From Octopus vulgaris (lineage: Eukaryota): 64,000 nucleotides of DNA. Positions 3,131-4,586 of this stretch are shown piece after piece. Within the stretch, counting starts at the first letter, position 1; each line of letters starts with the position of its first letter. The notes under the pieces were generated by a model. It was not told the DNA's origin and did not search any database. It saw only the letters and a program-made list of their open reading frames with translations. Location of the stretch: the NCBI GenBank assembly GCA_951406725.2, contig OX597825.1, positions 22,754,001 to 22,818,000 on the forward strand, read 5' to 3'. A program made the position numbers and the translations under genes.

Positions 3131-3351
3131 CATATACATATATATATATATATATATATATATATATATATATATATATATATATATATATATATATATA
3201 TATATATATATATATATATATATATATATATATATATATATATATATATATATATATATATATATATATATATATATATATATATATATATATATATATA
3301 TATATATATGAATAAATAAATAAATGGAGTTGAACGAAGATGTTAACAAAA

Positions 3352-3449
3352 TTCCTTTACTCTCGACATATGTTTCGAAGACAACATGGTTTTATTCCAA
3401 AGGAATAAACGGTGTAAGATGCAATCTTCTCATCAGGAAAGCAAGAGAG
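3352..3449 (-). ncRNA. Type I hammerhead ribozyme, mirror copy on the minus strand
   Basis: The reverse complement reads ...CTTTC-CTGATGA-GAAGATTGCAT...ATGTTGTCTTC-GAAA-CATATG-TC-GAGAGTAAAGG, with an intact core. Confidence 0.75.
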
Positions 3450-3516
3450 CCTCTTTCAACAACAAGACAAAATAATAGTCATCGTAATTATTATTTTGTA
3501 TTGTTGTTGAGAGAGG

Positions 3517-3614
3517 CTCTCTTGCTTTCCTGATGAGAAAATTGCGTGTTACACCGTTTATTCCTTTGGAATAAAACCATGTAGTCTTCGAAACATATGT
3601 CGAGAGTAAAGGAG
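3517..3614 (+). ncRNA. Type I hammerhead ribozyme (predicted GUC cleavage after 3601)
   Basis: Stem I CTCTCTTGCTTTC/GAGAGTAAAGGAG; CTGATGA at 3530-3536; long stem II GAAAATTGC...GTAGTCTTC; GAAA at 3590-3593; palindromic stem III ACATATGT followed by C. Confidence 0.75.
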
Positions 3615-4586
3615 TTTTGTTAACATCGTTCAACTCCATTTATTTATTAATTCATATATAACACACAAATTTCTGCACATGAACCCGGAGTTTCTACCCT
3701 TGGATAGGTCGCTTCAACCGTGTTTCTGTCGTGAATTTGCTACCCTGGTATCGGTTCACCGAATTTTCCATGTTGACGGTAAACATAGGATAATTCATAC
3801 ACCTATTGCTATATATATATATATATATATATATATATATATATATATATATACGACGGTCTTCAGTTTGCGTCAGTTTTGGTCACTCCGAGGCTATATA
3901 CACATACGCACAAAACAGCCACTCGTATTTATATGCGTGTGTATGTAATTACGTGCGTATGTGCATTGTTGTAAATGTTTAACCCAACAGTTTCATTAGC
4001 TTCACATCGTTTGTGATAGCATATTAATTTACAAATTATATTTGTGGCATCATGTTTATGTAGCAGCTTTCTGTCTCATGATATCTTTTTTTTGTTGATG
4101 AGAAGACATTTAATTCCTGTGAGATATTATATTAATTGTAGTTTATGATTCAGTTTATTGCTGTGTTCTGTTTGATGAGGTGTTTTATACTGTTTTCAAT
4201 TATTTTATATAACCAGGGCGTATATGTTTCAAATAATACTTGTGCATGCGATATTTTATTGCTACTGTGTTTCGTATCTGTTGAACTTAATATAACGTTA
4301 AATGCTGTTCGGCATTATTCTATAGCCCGATCTACTAAATATATATATATTAATAGCGTTTGATTTCTTATTTGTGATATATAGTACATATTTCATTGGT
4401 AGTACGTAAAAGCTGTTTACAGTACTAATTTTATTACAAACACTAACATAATCTCCATCGGCATTCCATTCTTAAATTCGTGCTGATGTAGGCTAACATC
4501 AGAATAATGACTGTCGACAAAAATGAAATTTCGTTTTCCGCTGTTTCCGCGATTCCCATGACTCTCTGTCGCCATTCGATTCCATT

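Follow-up and report, generated by a model that had tools for sequence, protein, structure and literature searches.

The window analysed here, a 64-kb stretch of octopus DNA, is of animal type and rich in AT and microsatellites. Near its start, an 11-nt loop separates the two arms (168 and 165 nt) of an inverted repeat (Table 1). The arms differ by eight substitutions and one 3-nt indel, i.e. at nine places, and are 95% identical. Folded as RNA, the palindrome reaches −254.8 kcal/mol (z −41.4), and none of 100 shuffled sequences gave a fold as good. The self-complementary element that a preliminary description had placed at 3310..3653 was thereby confirmed. Its position within (TA)n, which had also been claimed, holds on the left side, where 170 nt of TA abut the arm, but not on the right side, where only 6 nt of TA (3655-3660) are followed by about 150 nt of repeat sequence and then by a second tract of 44 nt. 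The insertion is probably wider than the palindrome and extends from 3310 to 3809. We infer a single asymmetric insertion, in which the two element ends lie about 155 nt apart. No target-site duplication is readable in (TA)n, and a repeat search of the locus, which has one motif per strand in inverted arrangement, found no direct repeats in tandem.

Table 1. Features of the insertion and its flanks, in window coordinates.
Feature	Position	Strand	Basis
Left (TA)n tract, likely target site	3139..3308	.	TA-run scan
Left arm, inverted 5′-truncated copy of the element end, 168 nt, stops at a short internal TA run	3310..3477	-	
Left-arm type I hammerhead motif; core 3436-3430, predicted cut after 3365	3352..3449	-	
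11-nt spacer, head-to-head inversion junction	3478..3488	.	Lowest family cover up to arm end
Right arm, direct 5′-truncated copy, 165 nt	3489..3653	+	
Right-arm type I hammerhead motif, predicted cut after 3601	3517..3614	+	
Right-arm motif, stem I	3517-3529/3602-3614	+	
Right-arm motif, core CUGAUGA	3530-3536	+	
Right-arm motif, 53-nt helix II region	3537-3589	+	
Right-arm motif, GAAA	3590-3593	+	
Right-arm motif, palindromic helix III	3593-3600	+	
Right-arm-only extension (6-nt TA run, then ~150 nt of high-copy repeat)	3654..3809	+	
Right (TA)n tract, 44 nt, other half of likely target site	3810..3853	.	TA-run scan

On both strands, the 3′ arm contains a hammerhead motif composed of the CUGAUGA core, GAAA, a palindromic helix III (ACAUAUGU) and a GUC site. 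In both arms CUGANGA, GAAA and NUH stand in type I order together with helices I and II. A motif scan of the whole window gave six matches, among which the two arm motifs ranked highest with scores of 26 and 25. As a control, six shuffled windows were scanned, which yielded one strict match in all and a best score of 13. The complete type I core that had been described for each arm is therefore present on both strands. The same is true for the palindromic stem III, an 8-nt palindrome with a computed energy of −7.0 kcal/mol as a self-duplex versus +2.4 kcal/mol as a hairpin, and for the long stem II, whose 53-nt region contains an inner hairpin of 8 bp. The palindromic helix III is predicted to need a dimer for ribozyme action. 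The 13-bp stem I exists as a helix but is not clean, since 12 of the 13 positions pair in the right arm (including three G·U pairs, with one mismatch) and 11 of 13 in the left arm. One of these pairs depends on G3524, where nearly all family cover has a T. When the motif is folded in isolation, the computed ribozyme fold lies within 2.2 kcal/mol of the minimum-energy fold. The hammerheads end 52 and 55 nt away from the TA run in the two arms.

An Rfam search had been proposed as a check and did not detect the motif: no hammerhead family reached gathering score anywhere in the window, and none appeared at E up to 10 in 3250-3720 or 3489-3815. At gathering score the search likewise misses a motif of known type at 27365. 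The hammerhead call is based on the core and the helices, with no Rfam match behind it. The microRNA families matched at the palindrome centre did not reach gathering score and are explained by the hairpin alone. In the extension (3654-3809), we found no canonical hammerhead on either strand and no recognisable coding frame. Hammerhead pattern scans gave no match in viral contigs, zero and one match in two scans of metagenome contigs and one match (L002) in prokaryote genomes. The metagenome match (L001), which is without helix III and stem I, and L002 were considered as relatives and both taken as chance. In supplement 2 of PMC4209133, no helix III of the ACAUAUGU type was found.

The preliminary description had further suggested that the RNA could fold either as a double-stranded rod or as a ribozyme. 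The rod stands, whereas the ribozyme fold is disfavoured: within the palindrome it is computed to lose to the rod by 115 kcal/mol on the plus strand and by 111 kcal/mol on the minus strand, with a penalty of at least 110 kcal/mol at every transcript prefix tested. On either strand the antisense arm is transcribed first and outcompetes the ribozyme by these energies, so that read-through RNA is predicted to be a ~165-bp double-stranded rod without an active ribozyme. Because each strand has only one sense ribozyme, no monomer would be excised, and neither the retrozyme nor the symmetric rolling-circle logic would apply.

Contigs of four out of 24 runs, coming from three organisms (A, B and C), were aligned to positions 3478-3790 only. 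Contigs matching the arm family numbered 1361 in X1 (organism A), 103 in X3 (organism A, RNA by guess only), 779 in X4 (organism B) and 1196 in X5 (organism C); all three organisms contain the arm as a repeat of very high abundance. In X1, the summed depth peaked at 2.8e5 over the ribozyme, fell to 1.2e4 at the arm start and reached 4.8e3 at the loop, the last value still being far above that of a single locus. The same kind of drop toward the palindrome centre was observed in X4 and X5. The ratio of loop to peak depth was 0.017 in X1, 0.11 in X3, 0.003 in X4 and 0.004 in X5, where summed contig depth is not equal to copy number and contigs break at hairpins, so that copies with the same centre could be missed. 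Because cover drops about 60- to 300-fold from ribozyme to centre in the three large runs (X1, X4 and X5), most family copies are 5′-truncated arms rather than the 3310-3653 palindrome.

In addition, junctions differ among copies. At the present locus 3489 is joined to 3478, while an X1 contig joins 3527 to 3736 on opposite strands (the orientation is the analyst's reading), the only joint among those listed. A third arrangement was found in a remnant at 18686-18747, where the extension end stands head to head with an arm-like piece of a related subfamily between TA runs. These pieces at 18.7 kb are the only other matches in the window to the arm and to the extension, and none of eight shuffled windows gave either. 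No joint at the locus's own centre or outer ends was among those listed for contigs on 3478-3790, a weak result since hairpins break contigs. Nor was there a 'go back' joint, as tandem direct copies would give, among those listed within 3478-3790, joints beyond 3790 being invisible.

The extension is itself a high-copy repeat in the aligned contigs. Six of the 32 pieces listed (3,427 further ones exist) cross from the arm end into the extension over 3653-3660. As they each differ from the locus by 4-11 letters, these pieces represent other copies. When at least 31 letters were demanded on both sides of 3653-3660, one of the 32 listed pieces bridged strictly, and no indel in the short TA run (3655-3660) was seen among the rows listed. 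The extension is probably the longer 3′ end of the same element and resembles a 'tail', although it could be a second element that was carried along.

Family variants were not spread evenly over the motif. None of the 19 positions of core and helix III had a family variant, compared to five of nine positions in the helix II internal loop (Fisher p 0.0013, in a test covering 40 of the 45 variant rows). Five family-level variants fall in helices; the pair is kept at 3573, 3582, 3604 and 3611 and broken at 3585. Judged from the sequences, this pattern suggests that the ribozyme is under selection in the source elements and not in the 3310-3653 copy. It also bears on the other option raised earlier, namely that the palindrome is a minimal, self-contained ambisense unit, retrozyme- or viroid-like, which moves or replicates as a whole. 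Such a unit would suit the one intact core per strand, the rod fold, the sparing of the core by family variants and a loop cover well above one locus. A Penelope-like source family would conserve the core equally, however, and movement of the whole unit would give flat cover, so that the low values observed at the centre (0.3-1.7% of peak cover in X1, X4 and X5; 11% in X3) argue against it. Moreover, a lone sense ribozyme per strand cannot free a monomer and has its fold blocked by 111-115 kcal/mol, the locus is without the tandem direct repeat that is the defining trait of non-LTR retrozymes in the available part of PMC7229834, and no joint closing the outer ends was among those listed (contigs only, so that a rare form is possible). 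Similar palindromes without a hammerhead are also common in the window. In view of the cover slope, the differing junctions, the single sense ribozyme per strand and the blocked fold, we did not retain this option, which we rate as very improbable.

Next we compared the two arms with their family. At the sites of arm difference for which family data exist, the left arm has the family letter at six substitutions and at the indel, and the right arm at one. Counted as private changes, these are seven in the right arm versus one in the left (two-sided binomial p 0.07), an asymmetry that equal age of both arms does not account for well. Both arms have G3524, at which position 105,368 of 107,611 depth units of X1 are T; after one contig was re-aligned, the non-T remainder was ~100, about the depth of two single contigs. 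With this base in common, the arms derive from one molecule or were converted. In X3 (RNA by guess) the arm family is present and no contig has G3524, which has no bearing on expression.

The arm comparison speaks to two further explanations. A solo copy could have come first, with the left arm arising later through inverted duplication at the DNA level, when a break in the long TA tract was repaired by fold-back. The presence of G3524 in both arms fits such arm-to-arm copying, and at 56129-56900 another repeat has been inverted-duplicated around a microsatellite. A left arm copied late should nevertheless share the seven private changes of the right arm, and it has the family letter instead; moreover, the duplicated part holds element sequence only and stops at the family end. 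We therefore regard a later duplication as improbable. An assembly or long-read artefact, i.e. a false fold-back, would agree with the finding that no contig among those listed spans the locus centre. It would not, however, produce arms that differ at nine places, at most of which the left arm has the family majority, and the probability that we give to it is close to negligible.

Four more complex palindromes are located at microsatellites in the window (22652-22827, 30479-30810, 30868-31084 and 47001-47330), and the hammerhead scan gave no match in any of them. The palindromes at 22652 and 47001 are related (about 72%) and yet have different centres, and the family of the 30479 palindrome is also present as a solo arm at 57919-58020. 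Of the window's other palindromes, the three that were measured likewise have arms of matching length, around centres of 14, 21 and 41 nt. The palindrome survey requires 14 exact pairs, which inflates the loop of 3310-3653 (57 instead of 11 nt) and overlooks 30479-30810. Since palindromes without a hammerhead occur in the same window, the palindromic form is an insertion habit of such repeats and needs no ribozyme. A different geometry, unlike the short-loop palindromes, was observed at 56129-56900, where a different dispersed repeat is present in two inverted copies with a microsatellite core between them.

The window also contains a 5′-truncated and frameshifted Penelope-like element (PLE) at approximately 25585-27455 (+), with an RT YLDD motif, a C-x4-C-x2-C linker and a GIY-YIG domain (PF01541, E 6.9e-5; Atlas HTH_animal 0.97). 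The layout of RT, linker and GIY-YIG is as given for Neptune and Nematis elements in the accessible text of PMC8557442. The element ends in a U3-A8 minimal hammerhead (27365-27396), 56 nt before (TA)n. It has no nucleotide match to the arms and is a different family, which supports the type of element and not the parentage of the arm. Two related, decayed repeat ends bearing hammerheads were noted at 27501-27700 (-) and 22067-22169 (+), the former adjoining the coding element tail to tail across a TA tract.

We conclude that at 3310-3809 the 3′ end of a PLE, with its hammerhead, has with high probability inserted into (TA)n as a dead end, in the form of a direct and an inverted 5′-truncated copy head to head. 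An inverted pLTR insertion by-product had been the second option offered before, and it is supported by the drop in cover toward the centre, the differing junctions and an arrangement that is already in print. That pLTRs of PLEs carry hammerheads and can be inverted, as had been stated, is likewise found in the available parts of PMC4209133 and PMC8557442. According to the latter, PLE insertions have an inverted 5′-truncated copy beside the pLTR, a tail of 30-40 bp at one end and a bias for (TA)n, and head-to-head inverted junctions are described in the excerpts of PMC3846280. At the octopus locus we found the corresponding features of EN+ PLEs, i.e. a hammerhead in a terminal repeat near the 3′ end, an inverted 5′-truncated head-to-head copy and a (TA)n site. 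A possible counterpart of the tail is the one-sided extension, which measures ~155 nt versus the 30-40 bp in print and is strictly bridged to the arm by one of the 32 pieces listed, with six of the 32 crossing the junction.

As to the mechanism, a GIY-YIG endonuclease/RT would cut (TA)n and reverse transcribe the element RNA from its far end (~3809) for ~330 nt, halting near 3478. The new strand would then fold back and be copied on itself up to the internal TA run at 3654-3660, which could anneal to the other target end. This fold-back route accounts for three features: both copies are truncated at matching points, they share a rare base, and only one of them bears the extension. Going by what is published on hammerheads of PLEs, the ribozyme of the parent element would be active in dimeric form, held together by its palindromic helix III. 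The accessible parts of the papers describe minimal hammerheads in pLTRs, their U3-A8 variant and a dimer requirement (PMC4209133), and review hammerhead cleavage as a dimer (PMC6765202); the PLE ribozyme is reported to be protein-assisted and dispensable for insertion in vitro (PMC11167929).

The same by-product might have arisen differently, if both cut (TA)n strands had primed separately, from start sites separated by 155 nt, with head-to-head joining of the resulting cDNAs. According to the available part of PMC11167929, a purified PLE protein acts on both strands, cutting as well as extending them, and starts reverse transcription at two internal sites. Furthermore, twin priming would bring together stretches of the element that do not overlap, as is seen in the X1 joint 3527|3736 and in the 18.7-kb remnant, and these two junctions fit separate priming better than fold-back. 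The arms at the present locus, on the other hand, overlap fully, end 11 nt apart and share a nearly private base, and independent truncation is unlikely to match lengths as often as is seen in the three other palindromes with centres of 14, 21 and 41 nt. Separate priming of two strands is thus a serious but rather unlikely alternative, and between the two routes the fold-back probably applies.

Among the aligned contigs and the loci of the window, no arm was linked to an RT/GIY-YIG frame. Given this result, and because the coding element of the window belongs to another family, the parent element could be non-coding. Eight short motif searches in the Naiad consensus sequences, as far as these were available from PMC8557442, gave no match, although some motifs may straddle line ends. 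The arm was also considered as the 3′ end of the Naiad_Obim or Naiad_Ovul consensus, and this was rejected as no resemblance was seen by eye.

Compared with the EN+ PLE units in the accessible parts of PMC8557442 and PMC3846280, the octopus insertion has in common the head-to-head inverted junction, the 5′ truncation, the one-sided extension and the (TA)n target. The distance of its hammerhead from the end, ~50 nt, is moreover similar to that in the window's coding remnant. It differs in being without a coding part and in the length of its extension (~155 nt versus 30-40 bp). With the minimal hammerheads of metazoan PLEs, as described in the available part of PMC4209133, it shares the type I topology, the conserved core, G10.1-C11.1 and the short palindromic helix III. 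Pairs of minimal hammerheads on opposite strands, 100-700 bp apart, are described there as well. In contrast to their stems of 7-8 bp, the helix II region of the octopus motif spans 53 nt and includes both an internal loop and a second hairpin, and the core descriptor in the accessible text of PMC8557442 allows a spacer of 7-17 nt at this place. Unlike the minimal hammerheads, the octopus motif is also without an extra unpaired base after the core and is missed by all Rfam hammerhead models.

The non-LTR retrozymes of metazoans (PMC7229834; bioRxiv 10.64898/2026.07.22.740005, both in the parts available) resemble the octopus insertion in being non-coding, carrying a type I hammerhead, falling in a range of 150-450 bp and having a low GC content. 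Animal retrozymes are defined there by tandem units, whereas the octopus repeats are inverted, with one sense ribozyme per strand and a gradient of 5′ truncation instead of whole tandem monomers. With the ambisense viroid-like circular RNAs in the excerpts of PMC10162972, it shares the presence of a ribozyme motif in each polarity and the folding into a rod. These RNAs are defined by circularity, while the octopus copy is chromosomal, lies between microsatellites and bears no sign of circularity. Moreover, its arms are 95% identical, so that either ribozyme would be locked up in pairing with its own antisense copy.

All this suggests that 3310-3809 is likely an ordinary instance of a known insertion form, with an arrangement that appears in the available parts of PMC4209133, PMC8557442 and PMC3846280, and probably one among thousands of Penelope-type footprints. 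A description of the arm family was not found in the literature searched with octopus terms. The 53-nt helix II region escapes Rfam and short-spacer descriptors while the core is conserved, and such variants may therefore be undercounted. A study of PLE hammerhead variants cleaving as dimers reportedly exists, and it may already include forms with a long helix II. Two element ends that lie about 155 nt from each other, together with the rare base shared by the arms, make the family a good one for studying how inverted junctions form in PLEs, a step that is called undefined in the accessible parts of the cited papers.

A minority subfamily might have fixed the fold-back form and move as a whole palindromic unit of ~500 bp, with divergent transcripts from the centre, each bearing a single sense hammerhead, dimerising in trans via helix III and being copied by a Penelope-like RT. 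A loop cover that still greatly exceeds one locus, together with the breaking of contigs at hairpins, leaves this a very small chance. If true, the whole-unit palindrome would be a chromosomal, ambisense, ribozyme-bearing and non-autonomous element, a kind without description in the literature searched. If transcribed, hairpins such as the present one would be ready ADAR substrates; hyper-editing has been tied to self-folding repeats in frog, and a high double-stranded RNA potential is given for octopus (PMC5625713, in the part available).

Elsewhere in the window, a U6atac snRNA match was found at 7250-7361 (+), with 59.5 bits versus a gathering score of 33, and an intronless frame of 473 aa at 40407-41828 (+) encodes a rhodopsin-family GPCR (PF00001, E 2.8e-28).
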